Shown in pieces: positions 821 through 28,743 of a DNA stretch of 64,000 nt. The DNA comes from an uncultured Bacteroidales bacterium (GTDB lineage: Bacteria > Bacteroidota > Bacteroidia > Bacteroidales > F082). Both the position numbers and the translations under genes were made by a program. Position 1 is the stretch's first letter, and every line of letters begins with the position of its first letter. The notes under the pieces are model-generated. The model saw only the letters and a list, made by a program, of their open reading frames with translations. It was not told the DNA's origin and did no database searches. The DNA lies in contig ONVP01000002.1 in the NCBI GenBank assembly GCA_900321315.1, forward strand, positions 272 to 64,271, written 5' to 3'.

Positions 821-1524
821 TCTAACTGACGGTTTAGCAATATCAACCTCATATCGACCAAGCCGCCGCTGTCATGGTTTTTGCATTGTTTGGGCTTTTA
901 CCCTGCCTGCCCAATGCTGTGCGGTAATGCGGCCTGTCAAAATGTGTCGTCCTCGTTCCTGCGGGCGAACATTTCGCCAGTCCACAACACCGCCCAGCGG
1001 CCGCGCGACGGCCAGCCTCAACTTCTACATCGCCCTGGGCAAGAGTCGTTTTTCAGTTCCAACTGCTTCGTCAATTCGATAGCACGAATAACGAAATCAC
1101 GATAGAACGAAAAAAAACGACAAAGGAAAAACGACACATGCCCAGGGCAGCCACATGTCAAATTGAAAGTCAATACTTCTAAGGAAATCTTATGAAAGGC
1201 CGTCGCGCTTTACCCACAGCTGAAGCATTAACCAGGCAAAAACCCCGCCAGTGGCTAACTCCAACTGTTATCATCGGGCTTTTACTGACTTGAAAGCCTT
1301 CAAAGCCTCACCGTCATTGCGGACTTGATCCGCAATCTCACAAGTCGTTAGCACGATAGTACGTTAGCACATATAACGATACGCACAGCCCTGAAGGGGC
1401 AACACGACATTAACCCGATGCAAGCATAGTGCAGCTTCGGGTAACTGCCCGACGTCCAACCTACCTAATTCAGCGGGAGGGGGAAATCGGTGTTCCCTGC
1501 GTCGCCGCTTCTTGCGCCTGCCTT

Positions 1525-1611
1525 GGTGCTGGCAAGGGTCAAGCCGAGCGGCAATCTGAAAAAATGCTGAGCTTCGTGCGCTTTTTCAGGTTGCCGCCCT
1601 TGCCCGACACC
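1525..1611. other. Extended interrupted hairpin (about 26 bp) inside a GC-rich ORF-poor block
   Basis: Paired by hand. 1550-1563 pairs with 1582-1595 (14 bp, one G-U). 1531-1538 pairs with 1597-1604 (8 bp). 1525-1528 pairs with 1608-1611 (4 bp). The loop is 18 nt. No T-tract follows on either strand. Confidence 0.6.
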
Positions 1612-2178
1612 GCCGCTGCTCTTCGCCGTCCCTCGACAAGCGTTTCGCTGCGCTCCACTGGCGCGGCTCCAGCGAGCGTTTGCGGCTCCAAGGCCAGCCG
1701 CTTTCGTGGCTCCTTGCTCGCTCGGGGCTTTCTTGTCGCCCCCCGAACCCCCAAACGGTTCTCGTACCTCGCAACTTTTTAGCGGGGGTCGCCGCGCCCC
1801 TTTAGTTTTGCGCCCCTGCTTGCGCGTCCGCCCGGCGGTTCCCTTTTCGGAGCGCTAAAGCGCATCTTGTTTCGCCCCCTCATCGTTGCCATCCCATCCC
1901 GCAAGGCTTTCGCTGGTGCCTGCCTCTTCGGGGTCGCCGCCGCAAAAGGCACACCCGCCGCCGCTTCGGATTGTAACCGTGCGCGGACTCCTGTCGGGCG
2001 GGTCGGCCGCGCTGGCGCGAACGGGGCGCAGGGTTTCCCGCTCTGGTGTAGTCCAGTTGCCCTTAGTATCCTCTTTCTCGGCTCTGTTTTTCTCTGTCTT
2101 TAGGCCGCAGGCGCTTTTCCCCCTTAACCTGCTGACCCAACGCGCATCCGTGCCACCGTCACCCCCGACCACCACCCC

Positions 2179-2212
2179 GTAAAACGGTTCAACGGCTGAA
2201 GCCGTCACCGTT
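2179..2212 (-). terminator. Possible second intrinsic terminator downstream of the M15 peptidase operon
   Basis: aacggt..acggc tgaa gccgt..accgtt two-step hairpin (2183-2212), followed on the minus strand by TTTT (plus-strand aaaa at 2179-2182). Confidence 0.4.
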
Positions 2213-2240
2213 CCACCATCAATCCCCTCCAACCACCCAA

Positions 2241-2271
2241 TAAAAAAGCCTTCACCAACTGGCAAAGGCTT
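2241..2271 (-). terminator. Intrinsic terminator of the nuclease/M15 peptidase operon
   Basis: 7-bp stem aagcctt/aaggctt (2246-2252 / 2265-2271) with a 12-nt loop. A T-run follows on the minus strand (plus-strand aaaaa at 2242-2246). It sits 28 nt after the stop at 2299. Confidence 0.5.
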
Positions 2272-2298
2272 CAAAATAAAATGAAAAGAACGAACAGA

Positions 2299-2727
2299 CT
2301 ACTTTAACTCAAAGTGGCTCTTATCGACGAAGGTTTTCCAGTTCCCGCCCCAAACGAGCTTCACATTCATTTCGCTGGCCACCTGAAACATCACTTCGGC
2401 CAAATCTTCAAATCTGGTCCAATCCACCGCCTTGCGGTTCATCGTCAGCGGGTACAAATCCACCGCCTTCCCGATGAGGTGTTTGCTTTTCATCGTGCGT
2501 GACTTTCCCTGCCTCACATACTCGCGCTGCTTTGCTTCGCTCCGCAGCCCTTCCGACACATTGAAAGGAAAAGGACAACGCTTCGCGCACTCAATCACAA
2601 TCGCCGTCAGGCGTTCATCAACGCCTTCCAGCCTCTTTTTCGATAACTCTGACAATTCCATAACTATTTCTCCTTTAGTTTGTTCCGTCCATTCTTCCCC
2701 CTTTGTAAGGGGGGTAGGAGGATTCAT
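2299..2727 (-). CDS. Peptidase M15 family (phage-endolysin-type L-alanyl-D-glutamate / D-Ala-D-Ala peptidase)
   Basis: SEGLRSEAKQREYVRQGKS...SKHLIGKAVDL...VWGGNW...DKSHFEL is the typical M15 (VanY/T5-endolysin-like) metal-binding pattern. No signal peptide. An alternative ATG at 2661 (MELSELSKKRL) is possible. The listed start overlaps the upstream stop by 4 nt. Confidence 0.8.
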   Translation of the reverse strand: MNPPTPLTKGEEWTEQTKGEIVMELSELSKKRLEGVDERLTAIVIECAKRCPFPFNVSEGLRSEAKQREYVRQGKSRTMKSKHLIGKAVDLYPLTMNRKAVDWTRFEDLAEVMFQVASEMNVKLVWGGNWKTFVDKSHFELK

Positions 2728-3365
2728 CGATACGCATCTCTTTCAAATTTGCCTATCTTCCTCCAAACCCAAGGAGCCACAGCCCGCTCGTCGCTCCACA
2801 GGCCGCGTCCGTCCTGTTTCGCTTCGGCTTCCAACGCCGAATAGGTCGGATTGCGGTCATACTCCTTGTAATGCCACGCCAATCCATGCTTCAGCATTTC
2901 AGCCCCGATGTCCTTACCGTCGAGGTAAACCGTCGCAATCCACCGCCCGTACTGGTCGCGCTGTTTCAGCTTCAGTCCTACGGTCTTCCCGCTGATGAGC
3001 CATTGAAGGTGCAGCGTGGCCACATCCCCGTAATACTGCCCTCGCTCCGGCGCGTCGATGCCGTTGATGCGGATTTGGGTCACCATCATCTGTTGCGCCC
3101 ACCATCCGCCTCCGGCGTTCTGGTCGCTCGCCGTGCGGCTACCTCCTCCCGTCGTGATGATGTTCCCCTCGAAGGTGTCGCCGTCAATGACGCGGCTCAC
3201 CTTCATCATAACTTGCTCCTTGTCATTTCCAGAAAGGCACTTCGTTACACTCGTTGCGGTATTTCCCCCTTTGGGGATAGTCAAAAGTCTGCTTTCTTTC
3301 CATTCCCGCTGGCATCCGCAAGAAAGCACAAGAAACGCGATGGCCAGCACCATTAGCTTTTTCAT
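2724..3365 (-). CDS. Secreted thermonuclease (SNase/micrococcal nuclease family) lipoprotein
   Basis: VIDGDTF, INGIDAPERGQYYG, DQYGRWIATVYLDG..GAEMLKHGLAWHY and EAEAKQDGRGLWS are SNase motifs. I trimmed the start to the ATG at 3365, giving MKKLMVLAIAFLVLSCGC (signal plus lipobox). A -7 box lies 24 nt upstream. Confidence 0.85.
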   Translation of the reverse strand: MKKLMVLAIAFLVLSCGCQREWKESRLLTIPKGGNTATSVTKCLSGNDKEQVMMKVSRVIDGDTFEGNIITTGGGSRTASDQNAGGGWWAQQMMVTQIRINGIDAPERGQYYGDVATLHLQWLISGKTVGLKLKQRDQYGRWIATVYLDGKDIGAEMLKHGLAWHYKEYDRNPTYSALEAEAKQDGRGLWSDERAVAPWVWRKIGKFERDAYR

Positions 3366-3388
3366 AATCTTATTGTTTTGATGCTTTG

Positions 3389-3396
3389 CAAAAATA
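3389..3396 (-). promoter_or_regulatory. Bacteroidota-type -7 box (TATTTTTG on minus strand) for the nuclease/M15 operon
   Basis: Plus-strand caaaaata equals minus-strand TATTTTTG and matches TAnnTTTG. It is 24 nt upstream of the ATG at 3365. Confidence 0.45.
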
Positions 3397-3483
3397 CACC
3401 ATCCATCCCGTTTGTCAGCTACGCAAACTAACGCAAAGCGAAGCAACAGAAACCATTGTAACCTATTGTAAATAAAATAGATA

Positions 3484-3491
3484 TACATTTG
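3484..3491 (+). promoter_or_regulatory. Bacteroidota-type -7 box (TACATTTG) for the first tandem paralogue
   Basis: Matches TAnnTTTG and lies 50 nt upstream of the ATG at 3541, in the divergent intergenic region. Confidence 0.45.
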
Positions 3492-3540
3492 CGAAACAAA
3501 ACCAATTAACCTCATTTATTAACTTCTAAATTTCAAGATT

Positions 3541-4209
3541 ATGGGAAAAATCAAGCAAGGAATCCTCGGAGGATTCAAAGGTAAAGTCGGGACGGTCATT
3601 GGCTCCTCTTGGAACGGCATTTCCTACATGAAAGGCCACGCCCAAAACATCAGGAACCCCAAGACCCCCGCACAGATGATTCAACGCGACTTCTTCAAGG
3701 AAGTTCAGGACCTGGCAGGTCAGCTCTCCAACGAGCAGTTGGCTTTCCTCTTTCCTCTAACCCCAAAGAACATGACCCGTCGCAACGCGCTCGCACAGCA
3801 GCTCGCCGCCGACCCCGTCGTCACTGACGATGCAAAGCACGTCGATTTGGCCAACATCACCACCCTCGGCAATGCGCCTACCGCCGACCTGCCGGATGCC
3901 ACCATCATAGCGGCTGGTGAAAACCTGACCATCTCCTGGGACGGCTCCACCGACTACCGCGCCGCCCACTCCGACGAGTTCCCGACCGTCTTTGTGGCCA
4001 ACGTCACCAAAAAGAAGGTCTATCTCGTCAATTCCACTGTGGCCTTCGGCCAATCTGGAAACCAATCGTTCAATGTTGGCCTTTCCGCCTATGGCGAAGC
4101 CACCGACACTTTCTCGGGCTTTCTCCTCTCCACAGGCGCAACTTCTCCTCATTGGCATGGCCACCTTTGCGTTAGCGAGCGTCCTGCCCGCGTCAAGAGG
4201 AACGCCTAA
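3541..4209 (+). CDS. Uncharacterised protein, tandem paralogue 1 of 3 (conserved Gly-rich N-terminus, basic C-terminal tail)
   Basis: MGKIKQGILGGFKGKVGTVIGSSWNGISYMKG... is near-identical at the N-terminus to the ORFs at 4363 and 5065, while the DNA differs mostly at synonymous sites. It has its own terminator at 4232-4259. Confidence 0.8.
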   Translation: MGKIKQGILGGFKGKVGTVIGSSWNGISYMKGHAQNIRNPKTPAQMIQRDFFKEVQDLAGQLSNEQLAFLFPLTPKNMTRRNALAQQLAADPVVTDDAKHVDLANITTLGNAPTADLPDATIIAAGENLTISWDGSTDYRAAHSDEFPTVFVANVTKKKVYLVNSTVAFGQSGNQSFNVGLSAYGEATDTFSGFLLSTGATSPHWHGHLCVSERPARVKRNA

Positions 4210-4231
4210 CAGCGTATTCGCGGACATCCTC

Positions 4232-4259
4232 AAAAGCCGTCCTTACGGGCGGCTTTTTT
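4232..4259 (+). terminator. Intrinsic terminator after paralogue 1
   Basis: aaaagccgtcc ttac gggcggctttt: 11-bp stem including one G-U, tetraloop, then a T-run. Confidence 0.7.
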
Positions 4260-4362
4260 AAGAGATTTCCGGGGCATGGTCAAGTAGGGTTCAAGTCTAT
4301 ACCAACTCCGAGTCAGGTTCGCAAAATCTAAACCAAGTATTAACCAATAAAAATTCTGAATT

Positions 4363-5037
4363 ATGGGAAAAATCAAACAGGGAATCTTAGGCGGATTCAA
4401 AGGAAAAGTGGGAACCGTAATAGGCTCCTCGTGGAACGGCATCGCCTACATGAAAGGCCTTCCGCAATCAGTCAGAAACTCGAAGTCTGCCGCTCAAATC
4501 AAGCAGCGCGACTTCTTCAAGGAGGTGCAGCAAATCGCTAGCCAACTCACTGCCGAGCAGCTTGCCTTCCTGTACCCGTCATCGCCCAAGGGCATGACAC
4601 GACGCAACGCCATCGTCCAGCAGCTTTCTGAAGACCCCATCGTTGAGGCCGACAGCAAACATGTGGACTTGGCAAACCTAAAAACCCTTGGCAACGCGCC
4701 AACGGCAGAGCTGCCAGAGGCATCCTTTTCCGTTGATGGCAACAACCTCGCCATCTCATGGAACGGCGCAAGCGGCTGGCGCACCGACCATGCCGATGAA
4801 TACCCTACCGTATTCGTGGCTAATGTCACCAAGAAAAGAGTGTTCCTCATCAACTCGCCTGTCGCCTTCGGCGCAGCTGGAGAATGGTCATTCATTGTCG
4901 GTCTGTCTGCCTACGGCGAAGCCTCCGACACCTTCAGCGGTTTTCTCCTTTCCACAGGCGCACAAACCGCACAAATCGGCTTCGGAACGATGGGCGTATG
5001 TGAACGCCCTGCCCGTCCACCCAAAAAGAACAACTAA
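4363..5037 (+). CDS. Uncharacterised protein, tandem paralogue 2 of 3
   Basis: Similar to paralogue 1 along its whole length (e.g. KHVDLAN..TLGNAPTA.LP, PTVFVANVTKK.V.L.NS.VAFG, GLSAYGEA.DTFSGFLLSTGA). C-terminal tail is ERPARPPKKNN. Confidence 0.8.
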   Translation: MGKIKQGILGGFKGKVGTVIGSSWNGIAYMKGLPQSVRNSKSAAQIKQRDFFKEVQQIASQLTAEQLAFLYPSSPKGMTRRNAIVQQLSEDPIVEADSKHVDLANLKTLGNAPTAELPEASFSVDGNNLAISWNGASGWRTDHADEYPTVFVANVTKKRVFLINSPVAFGAAGEWSFIVGLSAYGEASDTFSGFLLSTGAQTAQIGFGTMGVCERPARPPKKNN

Positions 5038-5064
5038 ATGTCTAACCCCTAAACAAGTAAAGCA

Positions 5065-5751
5065 ATGGGAAAAATCAAACAAGGAATCCTCGGCGGATTC
5101 AGAGGCAAAGTCGGTACAGTTATCGGCTCCTCATGGAATGGCATTTCTTACATGCGCGGTCAGGCGCAATCTGTCAGAAACGCCAACACACCTGCACAAC
5201 AGGCGCAACGCGCTTTCTTCAAACAAGTTCAGGAACTCACATCGCAACTCTCTGATGAGCAGCTTGCCATGCTGTTCCCGTCGGTCACACGCGGCATGAC
5301 GCGCCGCAACATGCTCACCCGTCAGCTTTCGGCTTGCCACGACTACGCTTCCGATGTCAAAACCTTCAATCTCTCCTTGCTGGAGGGCATCGGCAACGGT
5401 GAGCGCATCGATACGCCAATGCTGACCCTTACGGCTACCTCTATTGGCTCTCCGGCTAATCCAGTGACGGGCATCGTCATCGACCAGACTGTTGTCGCCT
5501 CAATCAACAAACCCGCTTCAGCTTGCTTCTCCGTTGTGGCCTACAACCTGACGCAAAAGAAGATAACCGTTTTCAACACGTCCTTTTCGGACTCCAACGC
5601 CAACCTGACCGTCGAAACAGGCAGCTTTGCCACCGATGGCGACAACATCCGCTGCTATTTGACCTATCAGTATCAGCGGAGAGGTGGTTTCGGCACATTG
5701 TCTATCGCAAATCGCCCTGAGCGCGACAAAGAGAAGAAAAAGAAATCCTAA
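5065..5751 (+). CDS. Uncharacterised protein, tandem paralogue 3 of 3 (divergent C-terminal half)
   Basis: The first ~95 aa align with paralogues 1 and 2 (MGKIKQGILGGFRGKVGTVIGSSWNGISYMRG...MTRRN). The rest is divergent. The tail GGFGTLSIANRPERDKEKKKKS retains the GFGT...RP.R motif. Confidence 0.8.
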   Translation: MGKIKQGILGGFRGKVGTVIGSSWNGISYMRGQAQSVRNANTPAQQAQRAFFKQVQELTSQLSDEQLAMLFPSVTRGMTRRNMLTRQLSACHDYASDVKTFNLSLLEGIGNGERIDTPMLTLTATSIGSPANPVTGIVIDQTVVASINKPASACFSVVAYNLTQKKITVFNTSFSDSNANLTVETGSFATDGDNIRCYLTYQYQRRGGFGTLSIANRPERDKEKKKKS

Positions 5752-5763
5752 AACTTTGCCGCT

Positions 5764-6018
5764 ATGTCACTCTACGAATGGATAACAACGCTCCTTGCGC
5801 CCGTCACAGGCATCGTCACTTGGTTTGCCGCCACGCGCCACCGTCAAAACCAAGTCATCAAGGAGATGCAGCACACCATCTATGAACTGGTCCAAGAGAA
5901 CAAGCGCGTCTATGCGGAACTTACTGAAGCTCGCCGTGAAATCGTCGGGCTTACCGCACAGGTTCGGCAGTTGAACATCGAGAATGAGGAACTGAAACAG
6001 ATGATTGAGAAGCTATGA
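5764..6018 (+). CDS. Small membrane protein: N-terminal TM helix plus coiled coil (holin/i-spanin-like architecture)
   Basis: WITTLLAPVTGIVTWFAA is hydrophobic and is followed by heptad-like ELVQENKRVYAELTEARREIVGLTAQVRQLNIENEELKQMIEKL. Its stop overlaps the next start (ATGA). Confidence 0.6.
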   Translation: MSLYEWITTLLAPVTGIVTWFAATRHRQNQVIKEMQHTIYELVQENKRVYAELTEARREIVGLTAQVRQLNIENEELKQMIEKL

Positions 6019-6482
6019 GAACGCGCATCCTTTTCCTCCTCCTGATGTCGATGGTTATGTGTGCTTGCAACGCGAACCGCAGAGCGCAGCGCCAAATCCG
6101 TAGAATAACGGAACGCTGCCCGGAACTCCACACCGTGCAAGCACACGCCTTCGACACGCTCCTCACGGTCGCGCCCGTGGCCGACAGCGCAGCCATGCCA
6201 CTCCGCCCGCTCCTCGAAGGCCAACCCGTCACGGTCAAGACGAAGCAAGGCACTTTCACCGCGACCGCTACGGATGACAGCCTCACCATCACCTACGAGG
6301 CGCAGCCCGAGCCAATTCATTTCACGGACACGCTGCGCTACGCGCAGGTCGTCATCAGCGAGGAACCGCCAAACAAGAAACCGCCCAATGCCGTTTGGTT
6401 TCTGCTCGGTATGGTGTTGGTGCTTGTGGCTATCCTCGCCTTCGTAATGGCAACCATTATTAAGCAAGTCAAGGCTTCCTGA
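6015..6482 (+). CDS. Lipoprotein with C-terminal TM anchor (unimolecular-spanin-like architecture)
   Basis: MRTRILFLLLMSMVMCAC is a signal plus lipobox-like Cys. The C-terminal AVWFLLGMVLVLVAILAFVMATII is a TM helix. The gene is translationally coupled to the upstream ORF. Confidence 0.6.
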   Translation: MRTRILFLLLMSMVMCACNANRRAQRQIRRITERCPELHTVQAHAFDTLLTVAPVADSAAMPLRPLLEGQPVTVKTKQGTFTATATDDSLTITYEAQPEPIHFTDTLRYAQVVISEEPPNKKPPNAVWFLLGMVLVLVAILAFVMATIIKQVKAS

Positions 6483-6501
6483 CAGGGAGCCTTCCTTTTT
6501 T
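6471..6501 (+). terminator. Intrinsic terminator ending the paralogue/membrane-protein operon
   Basis: aaggcttcc tgaca gggagcctt: 9-bp stem (one G-U) followed by cctttttt. It overlaps the stop codon at 6480-6482. Confidence 0.65.
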
Positions 6502-6925
6502 CTGGCCGTCGCTCGATGGGCGGTATTTCGGCTCTGTTGTAGTGTAATTGTTTATCCAAAATAAGCCAAAGATTGCAGGGGTGCTTCAACCTTTTTTTGT
6601 TGAGCATTACGCAATCTTTGTCTTATTTCGGCTGTAAATTGGGTTGCGTTTTCCCGTTCTCGTTTCTCCGACATCCTCTATTTCCTCCATTTCCGCTTGG
6701 TCAATGAAAACGATTCGGAGGGCTGCCTGCCAGCCAAAGGATGCGGAGATGAGCAACACCTTCTTTATTAAGCTTATAGGCCGCATCCTTCGTCTGTCAG
6801 TCAGGTTCCCATTTTGCCCAAAACGGCGCAAATTATGGTCTTTATGGTTGTTTATCAAAAAGGATTTCGTATCTTTGCATCGCACTTATAATCAAGCATT
6901 TAAGCAGTCCAAATACTTATTTTTA

Positions 6926-6954
6926 ATTTGCAACATATTTGCAACATATCTTTG
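6926..6954 (+). promoter_or_regulatory. 11-bp tandem repeat (atttgcaacat x2 plus a partial) ending in a TATCTTTG -7 box
   Basis: atttgcaacat atttgcaacat atctttg read directly. TATCTTTG (6947-6954) matches TAnnTTTG. The palindrome attgat-t-atcaat follows at 6961-6973. Confidence 0.4.
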
Positions 6955-7027
6955 TATCTAATTGATTATCAATATATCTTAATTTTGAGGAGGTGAAGTA
7001 AGCACTTCTTAAATCACTATCAAAAAA

Positions 7028-7059
7028 GGTGTAATCCGAAAGGGTTACGCCTTTTTTTT
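7028..7059. terminator. Bidirectional-looking intrinsic terminator in a gene-free low-GC stretch
   Basis: ggtgtaatcc gaaa gggttacgcc: 10-bp stem (two G-U). It is flanked by an A6 run upstream and a T8 run downstream. Confidence 0.65.
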
Positions 7060-7321
7060 GTTTTTTCCTCTGATTGAACGGTGTAAGTATGTTGCTGGCA
7101 CTTTTTCCCCTCTCGGTTTTCTCAACGCACACAGGCAATGAAGCCGTCACCCCCGTTGTCAACCCAAGAAAAGGTCAGGTCGCTCCGCAAAGTTCCGCTC
7201 AGTACCTCTATCGTCCCCACCGCTACTCTAATTCAAGAATTTGTACAGCGGCTTCTCCGTAAACTCCGATTTATGTTCATCATTATTCTATGTTTTCTAT
7301 TGATACTTTCGGAATAAAACG

Positions 7322-7408: not shown

Positions 7409-9622
7409 ATGCGAAATTTTGCTATCATTAAAGATTCCCAATATAGTGTTATAGATCAATACCGTCGCTATCTGAACTATGCTGTTAACCATCCTCTTTT
7501 AGATAGAGAGGATGCTGTTTATGATTATAATTTCATGCAGCAATTAGGAGTTCTTCAAGCTGACGAAATACAAAATGTCATCAAAACAAATGGTGATGTG
7601 CTGTATGAAGGAATCAAATACACCAATTCTAATATTCAAGAATTATCCTCTACTATTTCGCATAAAATGGATTATGTAGCCCAAGGCCTTACTTCATCAT
7701 TAGAAAAAGGTTTTACTCAAATGGAGATAGAACTTGGAAAAGCTAATCAGCAATTGTCTAATATCAATAGTAATTTAAGCGATATAGGAAATTCTGTCAC
7801 AAGAGGGTTTTCTGATTTGAGAGCAGGACAGATTCACACTCAAGAATTGTTAGAGGGTTTTAGAAAACAAGTTGGCAAATCTTTTGAATTTGTGATACAA
7901 AAGATTGAATTATCAAATATTTATTTAGCGGCAATCTACCAAGAGATGAAAATTCCAGAGTTCCAAAGAGAAAGACGGTATTATATGGAACAAGGAATAA
8001 AGTATATAAAAATAGCTATTAAAGAAAACGACAAGCTGTATTATGAAGATGCAGTTAATGCCTTTCAGAAAGCAATAGAAATATCACCAGATGATTATTT
8101 TTCATGGTTTTATCTTGGATACATATATCTTAACTCAACATATTTTCTTGATATAAATAAAGCCAAAGAATCATTTGAGCATTACATACACTATGTCCGT
8201 CCAGAAATCGAGTCAAGCAAACAAACTCGTTTAATACATCAATTAGATAGTGTGTATTTATATATGGCTGAAATCTCATATTTAAAAGGAGAGTTAGATG
8301 ATGCTGTCGAATGGACAAACAAATGTGCCCCTAATGAGAAGGTTATATTTTTGAAAGCTAAATATTTATCGGCATCAAGTGATAATTCTCATAAGTGTTA
8401 CATGGCTGCACAACTATTAAAAGAAGTCATTAGCAAAAACCCGTTTTTATCTTTGCAAGTGTTAGAAGATGCTGATTTAATTAGCAATGATAGTGTTATT
8501 ACTATGCTTAATCTATTAAAGAACGAAGCAGTTTCCCGTGCAAAAAGCATAGTTAATGGCATTAAGGCAAAATGTATGGAATATGACGGATTTAGTCAAG
8601 CATTTACTGAAGTATTAAAGATTGAGAAAAACTTACAATCCGAAACATATCTAGAAGCATGTGAAGCAATAAACATTCTTAATAAACGCATGAATTGGGT
8701 TATAAAAAACCATCAATTAAGTTTTACCTCCTCTATTGTCGATTATTGTAATAATTATATCTCTTGTCTTAACAATTTCGTCAATTCAAATAGCAACCTT
8801 CCTATTGGGATATGTGTAAAGTTCCTGAAAATATACGATAAAGTACTAATCATATTTAATGATACAGAAACTCAACGTTGCAAAGAAAAACTATTAAGTT
8901 GTTTCGATAATCTAAAATCCTCTATATTACGTAAATATACAGAGCAATATAATCGTGTTCAATATAGATTAAATGATTTAAAAGATTATACAACGGTTCT
9001 TATGTCTATGTTGTCAATTCTTGAACCATTGAATAAATATATTCCATATTCAGAATCAATTAATTATAAAAACTATAATACCGAAGATTGTGATTTAGAA
9101 ACGAAAACATTTGGCGTTCCAGCATATTTTCGGGATCGGTGCATATCTGCTTTTGAAAACTCAAAAACCAGATTGAGTATTGTTAAATTAGAAATAAATG
9201 CGTTAGTTGAGAAATCACAGTATTTTCAAAATATACTTCAGTTATTAAAATCATGCACATACTTAAATTGTAAATTAAGTTTGTTTTACGATGGACAGGA
9301 TGATACGATTATAGACAATAAAGTTGATGATTTTAATATAATCGAAACACTTACAAAAAAATACCTTGATTATGTAATAGCAATTAGCCATATACCCTCA
9401 TCTGTCCCAAAATATCCTGGCTTTGGCTTTTTAGTCCCTTTTCAATATGCAAGATGGATAGCTGTTTGCAATCGGGCAATGAACAATAACAGAGATTTAA
9501 TTTCTACAGCAAAAGCGGTTAATAAAAAAATGCATACTTTGTATAAGGATTTAAAGCAGCGCAATTTATTATTAACCAACCATATGCACATTCCTTGGTA
9601 TGGCCTCGACGATTGGAATTAG
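7409..9622 (+). CDS. Large orphan protein with N-terminal coiled-coil region and TPR-like repeats; no enzymatic motif recognised
   Basis: A 737-aa uninterrupted ORF in very AT-rich DNA. YYEDAVNAFQKAIEISPDDYFSWFYLGYIYL and ISYLKGELDDAVEWTNKC look like TPR units. The N-terminal 100-190 region is heptad-like. Confidence 0.7.
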   Translation: MRNFAIIKDSQYSVIDQYRRYLNYAVNHPLLDREDAVYDYNFMQQLGVLQADEIQNVIKTNGDVLYEGIKYTNSNIQELSSTISHKMDYVAQGLTSSLEKGFTQMEIELGKANQQLSNINSNLSDIGNSVTRGFSDLRAGQIHTQELLEGFRKQVGKSFEFVIQKIELSNIYLAAIYQEMKIPEFQRERRYYMEQGIKYIKIAIKENDKLYYEDAVNAFQKAIEISPDDYFSWFYLGYIYLNSTYFLDINKAKESFEHYIHYVRPEIESSKQTRLIHQLDSVYLYMAEISYLKGELDDAVEWTNKCAPNEKVIFLKAKYLSASSDNSHKCYMAAQLLKEVISKNPFLSLQVLEDADLISNDSVITMLNLLKNEAVSRAKSIVNGIKAKCMEYDGFSQAFTEVLKIEKNLQSETYLEACEAINILNKRMNWVIKNHQLSFTSSIVDYCNNYISCLNNFVNSNSNLPIGICVKFLKIYDKVLIIFNDTETQRCKEKLLSCFDNLKSSILRKYTEQYNRVQYRLNDLKDYTTVLMSMLSILEPLNKYIPYSESINYKNYNTEDCDLETKTFGVPAYFRDRCISAFENSKTRLSIVKLEINALVEKSQYFQNILQLLKSCTYLNCKLSLFYDGQDDTIIDNKVDDFNIIETLTKKYLDYVIAISHIPSSVPKYPGFGFLVPFQYARWIAVCNRAMNNNRDLISTAKAVNKKMHTLYKDLKQRNLLLTNHMHIPWYGLDDWN

Positions 9623-9643
9623 TTTAATCAATTAGTAAGATCC

Positions 9644-9718
9644 CTTCAGCCGCACATCAGCACCCTCACCAAAGCAAAAACCGTCCGCGCTTCGGCATTC
9701 ATTATCATGATGTTTTGG
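9644..9718 (-). pseudogene. Decayed 3'-end remnant of a small XRE-family HTH gene (repeat copy 1)
   Basis: The minus strand reads ...EARTVFALVRVLMCG*, which aligns to copy 2 (ARTVFALARALGCG...). The core ccaaagcaaaaaccgtccgcgc is identical. A 2-nt indel relative to copy 2 shifts the frame. Confidence 0.5.
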
Positions 9719-9840
9719 CAAGAGGCGAATTTCGTTCAATGAAGAATAAAACCGAAGCGTTATTATTTAGACTTTGTATAAATTAACCTATAAGTTTATT
9801 ATTTTGACAGTAATAGTAGCTTTATTTCAGAAATAAAGTC

Positions 9841-9848
9841 TATTTTTG
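9841..9848 (+). promoter_or_regulatory. -7 box (TATTTTTG) upstream of the HigB-like ORF
   Basis: Matches TAnnTTTG and lies 43 nt upstream of the TTG start at 9891. Confidence 0.45.
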
Positions 9849-9890
9849 CATCGTCAACCGACAAAAGTAAACCTGTAAGTTTATATCGAA

Positions 9891-10445
9891 TTGGAACTAA
9901 TAGCTATATATCCACCATACATCTACAGCGTTCAATATGATGATGTAGAGGAAAACGAATTCGACAGATTGTTCCAACAATGGAATGATTTGGAGTATGT
10001 GACGCAGTTCTTTGAAATTTTTCAAGATTATCTGAAATCCCCAGTTTGGCAAAAAACACCTGAGCCAGAAGATGCTACACTTCAAGTATTGCAAGAAGCT
10101 ACTGATTTAGAAGACCTTTTTGAAGAATTATACAATAACACCAAAAATAGTATTGTAGGAAAAGACTTTGATTCTCATTTTTATTATTTGGATGGAAAAT
10201 ATCAATTTGAGAAGGAACGACCTCCCATGAAATCTTATGGGACAAATCGACCTTCACTACTAAGGATATACGCCATAAAGATGAATACAAACACATACCT
10301 AATAACAGGAGGAGGAATAAAATTGGCTGATACGATACAGAACTCTCCAGATTTAAAAGAGCACGTTTTGAATAACATCGACAAAGTCAGGCAATTCCTC
10401 AAAGCAAATGGCATCATGGATAGTGATGATATGGAAAACAACTAA
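9891..10445 (+). CDS. Putative toxin: RelE/HigB (Gp49/DUF891-like) C-terminal region with a ~110-aa N-terminal extension
   Basis: SLLRIYAIKMNTNTYLITGGGIKLADTIQNSPDLKEHV resembles the RelE/Gp49 core strand-strand-helix. It is followed by an XRE gene in toxin-then-antitoxin order. Only a TTG start is available, because an in-frame stop lies at 9876-9878. Confidence 0.45.
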   Translation: MELIAIYPPYIYSVQYDDVEENEFDRLFQQWNDLEYVTQFFEIFQDYLKSPVWQKTPEPEDATLQVLQEATDLEDLFEELYNNTKNSIVGKDFDSHFYYLDGKYQFEKERPPMKSYGTNRPSLLRIYAIKMNTNTYLITGGGIKLADTIQNSPDLKEHVLNNIDKVRQFLKANGIMDSDDMENN

Positions 10446-10467
10446 TCAACTTAAACAATTTACAATT

Positions 10468-10899
10468 ATGGCATTTAACCCGGAAAAATTGGCCGCATTA
10501 GCCAAACCTCGCAGCGAAGAGGCAAGAGAAAAAGCACGAATCCGAAAGGAAAACCGTAACTGGTTGAGAATGTCCCAGGAAATAGCTCTCTGTCTGCATT
10601 ACTATCTTCGTAAGGCAGGGCTAACTCAAAAAGAGTTGGCAGATAAAATGGGGGTGTCGGCAGTATATGTTGGAAAACTTTTAAAAGGAGGGGAAAACAT
10701 GACCCTTGAAACCATCTGTAAGATTCAGAACGTAATTTGTGAAAACATAGTTGCTATAGCAAAACCGTATGTTAGCACTACAGTAATAAGTTTCCCTTTC
10801 CAGTATAGATTCTCACCCGATGCAATAACTAGCGAAAGATTCTCTGACAATCAATTATCACATGAAAATTATGTACCAATGGCTAACGATGCCGCCTAA
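10468..10899 (+). CDS. XRE-family HTH antitoxin (HigA-like) with a long C-terminal tail
   Basis: GLTQKELADKMGVSAVYVGKLLKGGENMTLETICKI is a canonical XRE HTH. I trimmed the start to the ATG at 10468. About 50 aa of aromatic-rich tail follow the HTH. Confidence 0.8.
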   Translation: MAFNPEKLAALAKPRSEEAREKARIRKENRNWLRMSQEIALCLHYYLRKAGLTQKELADKMGVSAVYVGKLLKGGENMTLETICKIQNVICENIVAIAKPYVSTTVISFPFQYRFSPDAITSERFSDNQLSHENYVPMANDAA

Positions 10900-10911
10900 A
10901 CACTTGAGACA

Positions 10912-11337
10912 ATGGAACCACAAGTAATGTATAGATTTAGCAAAATGGAACTTGAGCAATTTGCCATGTTTGAAGAGAATTGCAATCCAGAACCGAATGA
11001 AGTCCAATTTCATACCGAAGCGCAGTTTTCGTATGACAAAGATAATTACATACTTTGCAGTAAGATTATCGTTAACATGGCATCTCAGGAAAAGCCATTA
11101 GTAAAAGCTGAATTAAAAAGTTATTTCAACCTTTTGCCAGAGTCAGTTGAAAACTTGCGTAAGGACGGTCGTATCATGTTTGCTCCGCATTTGCTAGTCC
11201 AATTTGCATCTTTATGCTATGGCTCAATTCGTGGGGTAATCTTTGCAAAAACAATAGGCACACCTATTAATAATTACGTCTTGCCACCAGTGTATTTTGC
11301 GAATTTGATTGACAAGGGGTTTGTTGTTGAGGATTAA
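10912..11337 (+). CDS. SecB-like chaperone (third component of a TAC-type toxin-antitoxin-chaperone module)
   Basis: It is 141 aa. FAPHLLVQFASLCYGSIRGVIFAKTIGTPINNYVLPPVYFANLI parallels E. coli SecB [36 protein letters not shown]. The N-terminal and middle strands also line up. Confidence 0.55.
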   Translation: MEPQVMYRFSKMELEQFAMFEENCNPEPNEVQFHTEAQFSYDKDNYILCSKIIVNMASQEKPLVKAELKSYFNLLPESVENLRKDGRIMFAPHLLVQFASLCYGSIRGVIFAKTIGTPINNYVLPPVYFANLIDKGFVVED

Positions 11338-11399
11338 TGTTATCAGATGATTATAATAGCGCGATGCATAATTGTGTATCGCGCTATTTTTACTTTGTA

Positions 11400-11609
11400 T
11401 TACCCACAAATCACCTCAGCCCCACACCCCAGCGCCCTCGCCAAAGCAAAAACCGTCCGCGCCTTGGTTTTCATGATGTCTTGGTCGCCTTGCTCGTATG
11501 CCTGGATCATGCGAAGGGTGACGCCCGACAATTCGGCCAGTTCCTTTTGGGTGAAATGGGATTGCTTCCGAATGGTTTTCAGGGATAAAAAACAAAAAAG
11601 GTGTGCAAA
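11400..11609 (-). pseudogene. Near-complete small XRE-family HTH gene lacking a canonical start codon (repeat copy 2)
   Basis: The minus strand reads LSLKTIRKQSHFTQKELAELSGVTLRMIQAYEQGDQDIMKTKARTVFALARALGCGAEVICG*. The frame is open only to 11609, with no ATG/GTG/TTG before the HTH. It may still be expressed from CTG or be 5'-truncated. Confidence 0.55.
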
Positions 11610-11638
11610 TTAAAAAATAATGTGTATTTTTGCACACC
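11600..11638 (+). promoter_or_regulatory. Perfect 10-bp inverted repeat (ggtgtgcaaa / tttgcacacc) overlapping a TATTTTTG -7 box: candidate autoregulated promoter/operator
   Basis: The IR arms are 11600-11609 and 11629-11638. The -7 box is at 11625-11632, 38 nt upstream of the ATG at 11670. Confidence 0.5.
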
Positions 11639-11669
11639 AAATCAAGTCATCAATAAAAAGGGGGTAGTT

Positions 11670-12716
11670 ATGGAAAATGTTTTTGCACAGCGACTTATCA
11701 ATGCACGAAGGATTCGAGGGATTTCTCAAAGAGAACTTTGTGCACGGCTGGGTGGTCGGATTTCAAGTAATGCCATCGCCAAATACGAAACGGCGAAGAT
11801 GATTCCATCGAGCCAAAACCTGATTGCCATAGCTGAAGCTCTTGATTTTGGAATCGATTATTTCTTTAGACCATTCACCGTGAGCATTGATTACAATAGC
11901 TTCGAGTTCCGCAAACGGTCGAGCCTTCCCGCCAAAAAGGAAACGGCCATCAAAGAGCGCATCGCGTTGTTGATTGAAAAATATAGCGAAATAGAGAATA
12001 TTACACACGATGGAGTTCCGTTTAACCTTACTTATGACCAGGTGCTGTTGAGCAGTGACAACGACGCCCGATCGATCGGAGCACGCTTCCGTCAAGATCT
12101 TAACCTGGGTACCGACTGCATTTCCACGCCCATCGAAGTACTTGAAAACAGCGGAGTAAAAGTGATTGAGATTGACGCTGACAAGAAATTCGATGGTAGT
12201 TGTCTGAAAAACATAGAACTGCCAGTTATAGTCCTCAACAGGAACATCATTTCTGAACGCCGTCGCCTGACGCTTTTCCATGAGTTGGCGCATATAGTAT
12301 TGCGGTTCAACGAAGGAGCTGATGTGGAACGCTTGTGCAATATTTTTGCCAACGAAGTGCTTCTGCCATCAGCAGTGCTGAAATCGCTGTTAGGCGAACA
12401 TCGCAAAAGCCTCTCTTGGAAGGAGTTAAAACTGATACAAGAGAGTTATGGAATTTCGGTTGATGCCATCCTTGTGAAAGCCAAGCAAATAGGAATCATC
12501 AGTGAAGCATCGCACAGGTCTTTGTGCATCGAGCTAAATCGAAATCCTGAACTGAAACAGAGAGTGCAGGCAAGCGTATATCACAAAGAGGAATCGTCGC
12601 GTTTCGAACGATTGGTTTACAAGGCATTGTCCGACAACCTGATTACTTTATCGAAGGCTGCCGACCTGCTTGATTGTTCCGTTGACCAAGTGAATGCACA
12701 ACTGACATTAGCGTGA
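11670..12716 (+). CDS. XRE HTH fused to an ImmA/IrrE-family (COG2856) zinc metallopeptidase
   Basis: N-terminal RGISQRELCARLGGRISSNAIAKYETAKMIPS is an HTH. TLFHELAHIVL is the HEXXH motif, in the usual ImmA/IrrE context. Start trimmed to the ATG at 11670. Confidence 0.85.
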   Translation: MENVFAQRLINARRIRGISQRELCARLGGRISSNAIAKYETAKMIPSSQNLIAIAEALDFGIDYFFRPFTVSIDYNSFEFRKRSSLPAKKETAIKERIALLIEKYSEIENITHDGVPFNLTYDQVLLSSDNDARSIGARFRQDLNLGTDCISTPIEVLENSGVKVIEIDADKKFDGSCLKNIELPVIVLNRNIISERRRLTLFHELAHIVLRFNEGADVERLCNIFANEVLLPSAVLKSLLGEHRKSLSWKELKLIQESYGISVDAILVKAKQIGIISEASHRSLCIELNRNPELKQRVQASVYHKEESSRFERLVYKALSDNLITLSKAADLLDCSVDQVNAQLTLA

Positions 12717-12717
12717 T

Positions 12718-13233
12718 ATGGAGATAGTGGTCAACGATACGCAGGTGCTCATCGACATGTACGATGCTGATTTATTGGGACTGGTTGAACGTTGTTCTAT
12801 CAAGTTCCACACAGTAGATTACGTATTGGCAGAGTTGCACCGTTCGCCCTATAAGCGACCTGAAATTGACCAAATGGTAAAAGACGGTATACTGGAGGTC
12901 CATTCTTTTAGTGACAAGGAGAACGTTGATTTGGTGGCTTATTATGGTAAGATGGCCATGCAGACAAACCTTTCGTTAACGGATTGTGCAGTTTTGAAGT
13001 ACTCGAAAGACAACGGCTACCGACTGCTTACGGGCGACAAAAAGTTGCGTAATCACGCAGAAGATGAAGGTGTGCTGGTTTCTGGCATCCTTTATCTTGT
13101 TGACAAATTTGTTGCAGAACAATTGATTACGGGTACAGTCATGGCGGAACGATTAGAAATGCTGTTGAAAACAAATCCACGATTGCCAAAAACCATATTC
13201 GAGGAGCGGATTAAGTCACTACAGGGTTTATAA
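12718..13233 (+). CDS. PIN-like nuclease domain protein (DUF3368/DUF4411-type), partner of the ImmA/IrrE gene
   Basis: VVNDTQVLIDMYDADLL...VLAEL and LSLTDCAVLKYS...LLTGDKKLRNHAEDEGVLVSGILYLV fit the PIN acidic-residue pattern. Its start lies 2 nt after the upstream stop. Confidence 0.65.
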   Translation: MEIVVNDTQVLIDMYDADLLGLVERCSIKFHTVDYVLAELHRSPYKRPEIDQMVKDGILEVHSFSDKENVDLVAYYGKMAMQTNLSLTDCAVLKYSKDNGYRLLTGDKKLRNHAEDEGVLVSGILYLVDKFVAEQLITGTVMAERLEMLLKTNPRLPKTIFEERIKSLQGL

Positions 13234-27327: not shown

Positions 27328-28743
27328 ATGGCAACAATAAAATCCACACTACCATACGACATCACCCAAGCCACAAGCATTTTTGAATTTAGCAAAGGCT
27401 TGTTGGGGAAGACTTTACGCGATTTTGTTTGGGAAGACTATAATCCAAAGAAAGGAAAAGGGGGACTTGGGCAGATGGTGGAAAATATCTTTTTTTTGCT
27501 CGAAACGAACAACTATGCCTGTGCCGATTTCTCAGAAGCTGGAATGGAGTTAAAATGCACTCCTTTGAAGAAAAGTAAACAAGACGATTATCTCATCAAG
27601 GAGCGGCTTGTATGCAATATGATTAACTATTGCGATGTTGTAAAAGACGACTTCGAACACTCACATTTCTATTTGAAATGCCAGTTGATGCTGTTGCTTT
27701 TCTATCTTCATCAGCAGAATTGCGACAACCTCGATTTGGAATTTATCTTCTCAGTACTCTGGAAACTGCCCAAAAAGGATTTATTGATTATCCGACACGA
27801 TTACGAGATTATTATCGACAAGATAAAACAAGGAAAGGCGCACGAACTCTCTGAAGGCGATACGATGTACCTTGGAGCTTGTCGCAAAGGGCAGAAAGGT
27901 GACAGCTTGATGAAGCAGCCATACAATCCCGATGTTGATGCTCCACGTAGAGCATTTAGCCTCAAAATGGCCTATATGCGTACTGTCTTGGAATATGTTG
28001 TTAAGAGTGGTAAAAACGCTGTCTCGAATGTTGAAGGAGCAAAATCAGAATTGGTTAGTACCAGTGCCCTTCTGAGACATTCTTTTGATGACATTATGCT
28101 CAGTCGTTTCAGACCATTCCTCAATATGCCATTTGAAATGATTGCGAAACGGAAGAAAGTCGACATCTCGAACAATCCTAAGAATAAATTCGCGATGGTC
28201 GCCAATGCAATTGCAGCTTCTACAAAGTGTACCAACGTAAACCGCTCGGAAGAATTCCTCAAAGCAGGCCTCACAATGAAAACTATTCGCATCCAAGCCA
28301 ACGGTGTCATTAATGAAGCAATGTCTTTTGAAAACATTGATTATATCGAGGTGGCTGAATGTGAAGAGTGGATAGAGTCTCGTCTGTACGAACTTTATTC
28401 CAGCCGTTTTATGTTTGTGGTGTTTAGGGAGCAAACAGCAGGCAACGAGGATTATGTGCAGGATGATGTCTTCTTTTGGACGATGCCTCAAAAGGATTTA
28501 GAGTGGGCGGAAGTATACTGGAATCATATTAGGAATAACATTCTTGCAGGCCATATTTCTGAAGAGTATTGGTGGAAGGGCGCAGACAAAAAGAAGTTTC
28601 ATGTCCGTCCTAAAGCTCAAAAGGCAATAGACTTGGCTCCAACGCCAGATGGTAAAGGAGCGAAGAAGTTTTGTTACTGGTTTAATAATGATTATGTTCG
28701 TGAGATTGTGGAAAATAGGAGAAAGGAGAAAATGAATGGCTAA
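27328..28743 (+). CDS. Sau3AI-family (MutH-like) type II restriction endonuclease, probably GATC-specific
   Basis: Several blocks track my recollection of Sau3AI. These include AGMELKCTPLKKSK..YLIKERLVCNMINY, IIDKIKQGKAHELSEGDTMYLGAC.KG, QPYNP...RRAFSLKMAYMRTVL and the C-terminal YWFNNDYVREIVE. Confidence 0.8.
   Translation: MATIKSTLPYDITQATSIFEFSKGLLGKTLRDFVWEDYNPKKGKGGLGQMVENIFFLLETNNYACADFSEAGMELKCTPLKKSKQDDYLIKERLVCNMINYCDVVKDDFEHSHFYLKCQLMLLLFYLHQQNCDNLDLEFIFSVLWKLPKKDLLIIRHDYEIIIDKIKQGKAHELSEGDTMYLGACRKGQKGDSLMKQPYNPDVDAPRRAFSLKMAYMRTVLEYVVKSGKNAVSNVEGAKSELVSTSALLRHSFDDIMLSRFRPFLNMPFEMIAKRKKVDISNNPKNKFAMVANAIAASTKCTNVNRSEEFLKAGLTMKTIRIQANGVINEAMSFENIDYIEVAECEEWIESRLYELYSSRFMFVVFREQTAGNEDYVQDDVFFWTMPQKDLEWAEVYWNHIRNNILAGHISEEYWWKGADKKKFHVRPKAQKAIDLAPTPDGKGAKKFCYWFNNDYVREIVENRRKEKMNG

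Follow-up and report, generated by a model that had tools for sequence, protein, structure and literature searches.

A recurrent cassette of lysis-type genes and DUF6266 arrays in uncultured rumen Bacteroidales as a candidate relative of type 10 secretion systems

Clusters of holin, endolysin and spanin genes that lie outside phages are known as type 10 secretion systems (T10SS), and they lyse part of the cell population to free cytoplasmic cargo that is co-transcribed with them (PMC10847048). According to the cited literature, they have so far been studied in Enterobacterales pathogens. The unimolecular spanin (u-spanin) is defined by a lipoprotein signal together with a C-terminal transmembrane helix (PMC6139136). 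Here we analysed a group of genes at positions 2299-6501 of a 64-kb stretch of contig ONVP01000002.1 from an uncultured Bacteroidales bacterium (F082); this whole stretch of 64,000 nucleotides is called the window. The original prediction, made from the sequence alone, left two options for these genes, the lysis end of an eroded prophage or a self-contained release/lysis cassette. We found that the window holds one recombinase-free copy of a cassette that recurs in uncultured rumen Bacteroidales. With a probability of roughly 0.5, we take this cassette to be a domesticated T10SS-like lysis/release module on a small integrative island, with signal-less DUF6266 proteins as its cargo.

The locus consists of seven open reading frames (ORFs), two on the minus strand and five on the divergent plus strand. 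The ORF calls placed all seven where they had been predicted, both -7 boxes were found at exactly the predicted bases, and a terminator is present for each of the two units.

2299-2727, minus strand: M15 peptidase gene, 142 amino acids (Pfam and PHROG)
2724-3368, minus strand: SNase lipoprotein gene, an accessory part, read from the ATG at 3368 (Pfam)
3389-3396, minus strand: Bacteroidetes-type -7 box of the SNase/M15 operon, TATTTTTG
3484-3491, plus strand: Bacteroidetes-type -7 box of the DUF6266 operon, TACATTTG
3541-4209, plus strand: DUF6266 paralogue 1, 222 amino acids (Pfam)
4363-5037, plus strand: DUF6266 paralogue 2, 224 amino acids (Pfam)
5065-5751, plus strand: DUF6266 paralogue 3, divergent type, 228 amino acids (Pfam)
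5764-6018, plus strand: p84, single-pass membrane protein with a coiled-coil tail, 84 amino acids
6015-6482, plus strand: p155, lipoprotein with a C-terminal transmembrane helix, 155 amino acids
2245-2272, minus strand: terminator-like hairpin of the intrinsic type that closes the M15/SNase operon
6471-6493, plus strand: terminator-like hairpin downstream of p155 (hairpin search)
7022-7057, plus strand: strong terminator-like hairpin with 16 pairs, approximately at the right end of the conserved unit (hairpin search)

Both -7 boxes fit TAnnTTTG. The p84 and p155 genes share a 4-nt overlap (ATGA), in agreement with the translational coupling that had been proposed, and the gap between the third DUF6266 gene and p84 is 12 nt. 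The seven genes were called correctly, but the conserved unit is larger than the seven-gene block and extends from about 1446 to 7060. Small ORFs in the divergent promoter region were considered as hidden holins and dropped; their conservation merely mirrors the nucleotide conservation there.

We read 146 related loci, which carry labels such as L001. The divergent block of M15 and SNase genes on one side and one to five DUF6266 genes, p84 and p155 on the other, with SNase as the variable member, is syntenic in about 40 of them, a count that includes near-identical copies. The block comprises five to nine genes with variable flanks and was found in rumen Bacteroidales metagenome-assembled genomes (MAGs) and in metagenomes. 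A single MAG can have several cassette loci (for example RUG245, F082 and RUG12545). Among the loci with enough flank, M15, p84 and p155 were all present in 29 and all absent in 10, with two exceptions, so these three genes are gained or lost together. The SNase gene was found in 26 of the 29 lysis-type loci and is missing from some cassette copies. The lysis-free version keeps the same promoter region (3419-3540, around the plus-strand box) and the same downstream non-coding region, and sometimes has an HTH_17 gene. Unrelated conserved contexts for the membrane proteins, which would have spoken against a cassette, did not turn up, since every p155 locus examined was this cassette.

In 23 loci we found a gene for a tyrosine recombinase of about 500 amino acids (for example L083:11936-13438). 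It is convergent with p155, lies 330-650 bp (once 1,270 bp) downstream of it and is present in about two thirds of the complete copies whose right flank was sampled. The predicted lack of integration genes therefore holds for the window copy (Pfam, tblastn) and fails for the family. No remnant of the recombinase gene was found in the window by tblastn with the family's recombinase, and no attachment (att) repeats were found in the recombinase-carrying loci. When all flanking ORFs were clustered, the recombinase gene and the gene of a 321-amino-acid protein were the only two other recurrent genes. The neighbours were otherwise varied; in the annotated loci they included defence-type genes and no phage structural genes.

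These loci bear directly on the eroded prophage, that is, a phage of which only the lysis end is left after deletion of the genes for structure, replication and integration. The M15 peptidase is 45-48% identical to annotated phage endolysins, holin- and spanin-like architectures are typical of phages, and the GC content of the region is above that of its flanks. However, the comparative check gave the same gene set as a unit in about 40 loci. Phage structural genes were near none of them, and repeated independent erosion to one end-point is implausible. Pfam searches with the large ORFs across the window found chromosomal genes (EF-G, PolA, MetRS, MnmA, methylmalonyl-CoA mutase, QueA and others) and a small AT-rich island, and no capsid, portal, terminase, tail or integrase gene. 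Together with tblastn they bear out the claim that the 64 kb have no phage structural, replication or integrase gene. DUF6266 and p155 had no relatives in 50,697 GenBank phage records or 2.9 million IMG/VR contigs. Neither phage-gene remnants nor the same genes in intact phages were found, and complete prophages with these genes did not appear among the loci examined, the GenBank phages or IMG/VR. The window, the annotated related loci and the phage collections thus all place the cassette outside prophages, and we consider a prophage remnant very improbable.

The M15 product is the part with the clearest lysis signature. It matches Pfam Peptidase_M15_4 (E 7.7e-11) and the PHROG 465 endolysin (E 1e-42), and has intact SxHxxGxAxD (S-K-H-L-I-G-K-A-V-D) and DxxH (D-K-S-H) motifs. 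Its identity to annotated endolysins in 948 phage records (45-48%) extends over the full length. The best match in PDB was ChiX (5opz; E 3.9e-22), gapless across 114 residues. From its sequence we classify it as a VanY / L-Ala-D-Glu endopeptidase-type peptidoglycan hydrolase homologous to the ChiX/T5 type, and the cluster thus contains the phage-endolysin-type hydrolase that a T10SS has. In related loci the M15 gene is called as 120 amino acids with an internal MELSEL as its start, which is probably the true start (window 2664). Its neighbour, the SNase protein (Pfam SNase, E 4e-22), begins with MKKLMVLAIAFLVLSCGC and has the lipoprotein signal MKKLMVLAIAFLVLSC with the lipobox LVLSC. The domains, this lipobox and the hydrophilic N-terminus of M15, which has no signal peptide, agree with the predicted pair of a lipoprotein thermonuclease and a signal-less endolysin-type peptidase.

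The p84 protein has one N-terminal hydrophobic segment followed by charged coiled-coil-type sequence, as had been described for it. Its best PHROG holin match was weak (phrog_1296, E 0.0016). It could be a holin with one transmembrane segment or an i-spanin-like partner. The p155 protein has a lipobox N-terminus, MRTRILFLLLMSMVMCAC, and a C-terminal transmembrane segment, AVWFLLGMVLVLVAILAFVMATII, so the outer-membrane lipoprotein signal and the C-terminal helix of a u-spanin are combined in one protein. Both features were kept in 120 of 120 homologues, and the predicted u-spanin architecture stands. The family is narrow, with 291 homologues at E <= 0.001, of which the best 120 are at least 64% identical. 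We found no sequence similarity between p155 and known spanins in PHROGs and the phage collections. Spanins are defined by their architecture and function; a spanin role of p155 is putative, as is a holin role of p84, for which an i-spanin-like role is equally conceivable.

The three paralogues of the plus-strand unit belong to Pfam DUF6266 (PF19781), with scores of 55.0, 53.3 and 42.5 bits at a gathering threshold of 23.4 bits. Paralogues 2 and 3 are 68% and 43% identical to paralogue 1, whose homologues come from ruminant-gut metagenomes and Bacteroidales MAGs, and none of the three proteins has a signal peptide. With the N-terminal 80 residues searched against 1.8 billion representatives, the DUF6266 family comprised 1,365 representatives at 50% identity. 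Among the matches listed, nearly all were 200-235 amino acids long and opened with the very conserved N-terminus, and the shorter ones were possibly fragments. The idea of polymorphic toxins was dropped, as there were no recognisable fusions and one longer protein with an internal motif among these matches. In two AlphaFold models (predicted local distance difference test scores of 76 and 81), a beta hairpin at the N-terminus is followed by a helical segment and then by an FN3-like sandwich. Foldseek searches of the two models against PDB and BFVD gave generic FN3 matches only and no capsid, tail or toxin fold. Neither DUF6266 nor p155 gave anything in PADLOC, NCBIfam or PHROGs, and a literature search found no paper that names DUF6266.

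The arrays hold one to five DUF6266 genes, with three copies in 27 loci, four in 12 and one in nine. They diverge quickly in the middle of the protein. The divergent type-3 copy comes last in 44 of 56 complete arrays, which suggests specialised DUF6266 subunits. Copy number variation and fast mid-protein divergence would also suit an abortive-infection or defence cassette, in which diversified DUF6266 proteins sense an invader and M15, p84, p155 and the nuclease kill the infected cell. Such a function would fit neighbours in several loci (AbiEii, an OLD/UvrD pair, Abi_2, WYL and RtcB), the MutH-like and Dcm genes elsewhere in the window and the mobile look of the element. However, DUF6266 and p155 have no PADLOC match, those of p84 and SNase are only marginal, and we recognised no NTPase, sensor or effector domain. 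Arrays also exist without the killing genes. Since mobile islands gather defence genes anyway, the neighbourhood is weak evidence, and we regard a defence cassette as rather unlikely.

The rumen DUF6266 subfamily has a basic C-terminal tail, GFGTxxVxxRPAR, which some relatives extend by ..RNPRTGH. Its likeness to the rising strand of the HU/IHF arm was significant in one relative, P0050 (E 2.5e-5), and Pfam PF00216 flags DUF6266 relatives. A full HU domain consists of two dimerisation helices and a three-stranded sheet with a beta-arm; in DUF6266, the likeness is confined to about 30 residues at the C-terminus, which correspond to strand beta1-2 and the rising half of the arm. No HU/IHF structure was among the 50 best matches of either Foldseek search with the DUF6266 models. 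We also considered a circularly permuted HU, since a chimera of the P0050 C- and N-terminus aligns gaplessly to HU over the junction (E 7.8e-7). This is kept as speculation only: the P0050 C-terminus alone reaches E 2.5e-5, so that the junction adds only about 5 bits, the junction of the window copies gave E 0.48, and canonical DUF6266 has no tail. Judged by the tail sequence, nucleic-acid binding by DUF6266 is plausible.

A DNA-binding tail would be at home in an integrative element's module that remodels the envelope without lysis or has an architectural role. Here M15 would trim murein locally, p84 and p155 would form a trans-envelope scaffold, and DUF6266 would be HU-like architectural proteins that aid recombination, replication or transfer of the element. 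The recombinase adjoins the cassette, the version without lysis genes can carry HTH_17, which is an excisionase-type family, and canonical DUF6266 lies between primase and helicase genes in a Segatella copri integrative element. On the other hand, the rumen cassette has no transfer or replication genes, an FN3-like body in one to five paralogues is unusual for an architectural DNA-binding protein, and the likeness to HU covers no more than about 30 residues and is weak in the window copies. Moreover, M15 has no export signal and could reach murein only via a membrane lesion. We therefore find a non-lytic module unlikely, yet worth keeping in mind.

The Segatella copri block (chromosomal, L051:5593-12428) is integrative-element-like and has, in order, Abi_2, HTH_17, BT4734-like_N, a DUF3987/PriCT_2 primase, canonical DUF6266 and a PIF1/AAA_30 helicase. 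In a distant lineage (L058:4445-8120), four tandem DUF6266 genes are directly followed by a VanX-type M15 D-Ala-D-Ala dipeptidase gene, which is a second, independent link between a DUF6266 array and a cell-wall peptidase. An HTH_17 gene together with a DUF3987/PriCT_2-type primase in canonical DUF6266 elements would also befit a phage satellite, a helper-mobilised island with its own lysis genes whose DUF6266 proteins contact helper particles. A small integrative island with a tyrosine recombinase agrees with this, and Ig/FN3-like domains are common on phage particles (here only generic FN3 matches were obtained). Nevertheless, the rumen cassette has no primase, packaging or capsid-remodelling genes and no IMG/VR match, and known satellites rarely combine lysis genes with missing replication genes. 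We think that a satellite is improbable.

We return to the T10SS-like release module as our favoured reading. Of the two options in the original prediction, the self-contained release/lysis cassette was the one that gained support: M15, p84 and p155 follow an all-or-none pattern, the DUF6266 genes are tightly packed against p84 and p155, and the closest solved relative of M15, ChiX, comes from a non-phage lysis/secretion cassette. The released material may be the paralogues or DNA. It is the gene arrangement that points to DUF6266 as putative cargo, with signal-less proteins encoded 12 nt before p84 and an overlap of p84 with p155. In such a system, the divergent promoters would fire in a subset of cells. 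p84 would give M15 access to the murein, either by permeabilising the inner membrane or as the inner-membrane partner, and p155 would bridge and disrupt both membranes. The cytoplasmic DUF6266 proteins, as one to five diversified paralogues, would be set free as cargo, and their basic HU-arm-like tail may allow nucleic-acid binding. The SNase lipoprotein would digest the released DNA.

Several points weigh against such a release module, and all that we say about cassette function is inferred. p84 shows no significant holin similarity and has a single, weakly hydrophobic transmembrane segment, so there is no clear holin. p155 resembles u-spanins in architecture only, and the endolysin gene lies apart from p84 and p155, on the divergent operon. 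In the window's own copies the HU-like tail is only weakly recognisable (E 0.48), and canonical DUF6266 lacks it. The counts of loci contain near-identical copies and, with no att repeats, the possible mobility of the cassette is read only from the recombinase and the varied contexts. Finally, 10 loci have DUF6266 arrays without lysis genes and canonical DUF6266 adjoins primase/helicase genes. Since both of these occur, DUF6266 has a lysis-independent function, and the defence, architectural and satellite explanations therefore keep some probability.

To the left of the M15/SNase operon, the conserved unit begins with a GC-rich RNA-like element. It is described here together with the other non-coding features of the region.

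1446-2184, plus strand: GC-rich structured RNA-like element (composition, nhmmer, covariation)
7085-7275, plus strand: degenerate duplicate of the RNA-like element's 3' part and tail unit, about 72-78% identity
838-1300, no strand assigned: conserved non-coding segment upstream of the RNA-like element (blastn to many loci)
6540-6810, plus strand: conserved non-coding region with two long hairpins (blastn, inverted repeats)

The RNA-like element is about 700 nt long and non-coding, with 58-65% GC against about 30-45% in its flanks. There are copies elsewhere (for example L001:8379-9112 and L137:7855-8608), and nhmmer gave matches in about 30+59 loci. Indels that do not come in threes speak against a protein gene, and the lack of an Rfam 15 family speaks against a known RNA. 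Rfam gave no match at gathering thresholds over the window, and at E <= 1 only a chance miRNA match within 800-2400. The element is also absent from IMG/VR and the GenBank phages. Its orientation relative to the DUF6266 genes is always the same. We found it in 18 of 25 loci that had been found via DUF6266. Conversely, of 14 loci found via the RNA sequence pattern, nine have the cassette downstream and two more have M15/SNase at the contig end. The element also stands alone before ordinary genes (L089, L119, L137), and some loci have the cassette but not the element (L013, L015). The element adjoins most copies of the cassette and is thus a preferred neighbour, while its membership in the cassette is unproven.

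The 48 distinct copies have a mean identity of 86%, which is above the conservation of the adjacent proteins. RNAalifold predicted 158 pairs, 19 of them with compensatory changes. In the predicted structure 99.0% of the cells pair, compared with 95.9% in shuffles and 39-48% in slid controls, and there were 244 double-change cells against 90±7 in shuffles, a value reached by none of 500 shuffles. The clearest covariation was seen in the closing long-range helix, which pairs 1470-1474 with 2131-2135 and reads TTCAGCAGG/CCTGCTGA in one group of copies and AAAAAACCGA/TCGGTTTTTT in another. Most helices are invariant and hence uninformative on covariation. One-sided changes in minority cells were overwhelmingly G-U (113, against 14 A-C), which suggests that it is the plus strand that folds. 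Hairpin 2245-2272 is flanked by A/T runs on both sides and is therefore potentially bidirectional, so that it may also terminate the RNA-like element.

The core of the element is followed by a C/A-rich tail and then by 1-8 tandem repeats of about 75 nt. The repeat reads GTCGCTCCGCTA.CGCTTCGCTC...ACCACCATC..CCCCA.C.ACCACCC and forms arrays at L019:2531-3097, L026:8207-8460 and L045:2158-2359; the window has one partial unit (2185-2240). How many repeats a locus has does not follow its count of DUF6266 paralogues. Contig breaks within the RNA-like element are common, as expected for a multi-copy sequence. Two contigs of the same strain (L147 and L148) are 99.4% identical to the window rightwards of base 1448 and unrelated leftwards, and therefore the 5' end of the element is a recombination boundary. 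The gene of the protein mentioned above (321-347 amino acids) is often found immediately upstream of the element on the same strand (L001:6943-7908, L137:6747-7790 and 16 more loci). This protein has no Pfam family, shows faint similarity to S1/P1 nuclease and Zn-phospholipase C, and is absent from the window.

Apart from this locus and its copies in the same strain, none of the loci examined for the degenerate copy at 7085-7275 had it. A 12-nt identity, CCGTCACCCCCG, is found at 2156-2167 and 7144-7155, and it may have been left behind by an insertion or by recombination. Insertion of the island into the 3' end of the putative RNA gene was considered and is unproven, as the recombinase loci had no right-hand copy and no att-like direct repeat. 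The segment at 838-1300 contains a 23-nt inverted repeat (1032-1054/1126-1148) and short iteron-like ACGATAG/ACGTTAGCAC repeats. It is present zero to two times in other loci and sometimes duplicated, hence optional, and at this place it is absent from L147. The region at 6540-6810 has hairpin arms at 6556-6576/6611-6631 and 6723-6746/6781-6804, which share the motif GCCAAAGGNTGCGG ... CCGCANCCTTTG and have covarying stem positions. It follows the last gene in both versions of the cassette; in loci with the recombinase gene, it separates that gene from p155.

The RNA-like element may have a regulatory role, may interact with the cargo as its partner or may mark a hotspot of insertion. One could also imagine that it forms a nucleoprotein particle or complex with DUF6266 that the endolysin- and spanin-like genes free from a subpopulation of cells. 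The small integrative island would then carry a virus-like agent without a capsid, or a vehicle that takes RNA and protein from cell to cell, but we see this as a long shot. Independently of the cassette, the element is a candidate discovery: it may represent a new class of large bacterial RNA, and with its clear genomic partner it is directly testable.

Elsewhere in the window, an AT-rich island (7409-13233, 27-35% GC) adjoins the cassette and is probably separately acquired DNA. It encodes a 737-amino-acid TPR protein, HTH_3 proteins, an HTH_3 + M78 (IrrE-like) protein and proteins of unknown type. A MutH-domain protein is encoded beside a C-5 cytosine DNA methylase (27328-30457); these are likely a restriction-modification or Vsr-like pair unrelated to the cassette. 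At the left window edge (29-820) lies the 3' part of an HATPase_c_4 gene with a winged-helix C-terminus, a protein type that has a Schlafen/AlbA_2 domain in L085. At that place contig L147 has other genes, namely YhcG/DUF1016, radical SAM and a DUF3987 primase.

When compared with known systems, the RNA-like element resembles ROOL, GOLLD, OLE and HEARO in being large, GC-rich relative to its surroundings, non-coding and conserved with compensatory changes. It adjoins lysis-type genes, and GOLLD is found in prophages. What sets it apart from these RNAs is the lack of an Rfam 15 match, its very high C content, the 1-8 repeats of about 75 nt that come after it and its link to DUF6266 arrays. The rumen DUF6266 subfamily shares with canonical Bacteroidales DUF6266 the N-terminal ~50 residues (MGKIKQGILGGF.GKVG..VG), the helical segment, the FN3-like body, a size of about 210-230 amino acids and tandem arrays. 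However, it is only 25-32% identical to the canonical family, has the added HU-arm-like basic tail GFGTxxVxxRPAR(..RNPxTG), and is linked to lysis genes, whereas the canonical family is linked to primase/helicase genes. If our reading is true, the cassette gives a first functional handle on the large DUF6266 family.

Like the u-spanins of phage lysis cassettes (phage T1 gp11 type), p155 has an N-terminal lipoprotein signal, a C-terminal transmembrane helix and a beta-rich-looking middle, and it is likewise the last gene of its operon, after a small membrane protein (PMC6139136). It differs from them in its lack of sequence similarity to known spanins and of a phage around it. Moreover, p155 has extra cysteines near the lipidated cysteine, while the 58 catalogued u-spanins have no periplasmic cysteine.

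The T10SS of Serratia marcescens (ChiWXYZ) and Yersinia entomophaga (YenLC) likewise combine an endolysin gene with membrane-protein genes outside a phage, and the genes beside them encode signal-less proteins. The M15 peptidase is directly homologous to ChiX, which is the endopeptidase in the Serratia cassette (E 3.9e-22). A proteomic analysis in Yersinia lists a nuclease among the proteins (PMC10847048), and the rumen cassette has an SNase lipoprotein. In contrast to T10SS, the rumen cassette has no recognisable holin, and its endolysin gene is on a divergent operon. Its host belongs to Bacteroidota instead of Enterobacterales, its spanin-like protein is unimolecular where Serratia has the ChiY/ChiZ pair, and its cargo would be a DUF6266 array. 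It is also multi-copy, often carries a tyrosine recombinase and lies beside a large RNA-like element. Non-phage lysis cassettes are thus already known, and what is new here is the phylum, the type of spanin-like protein, the putative cargo, the putatively mobile, multi-copy nature and the link to the RNA-like element. If true, a mobile, multi-copy version that is common in rumen Bacteroidota would widen the T10SS concept to a dominant gut phylum.

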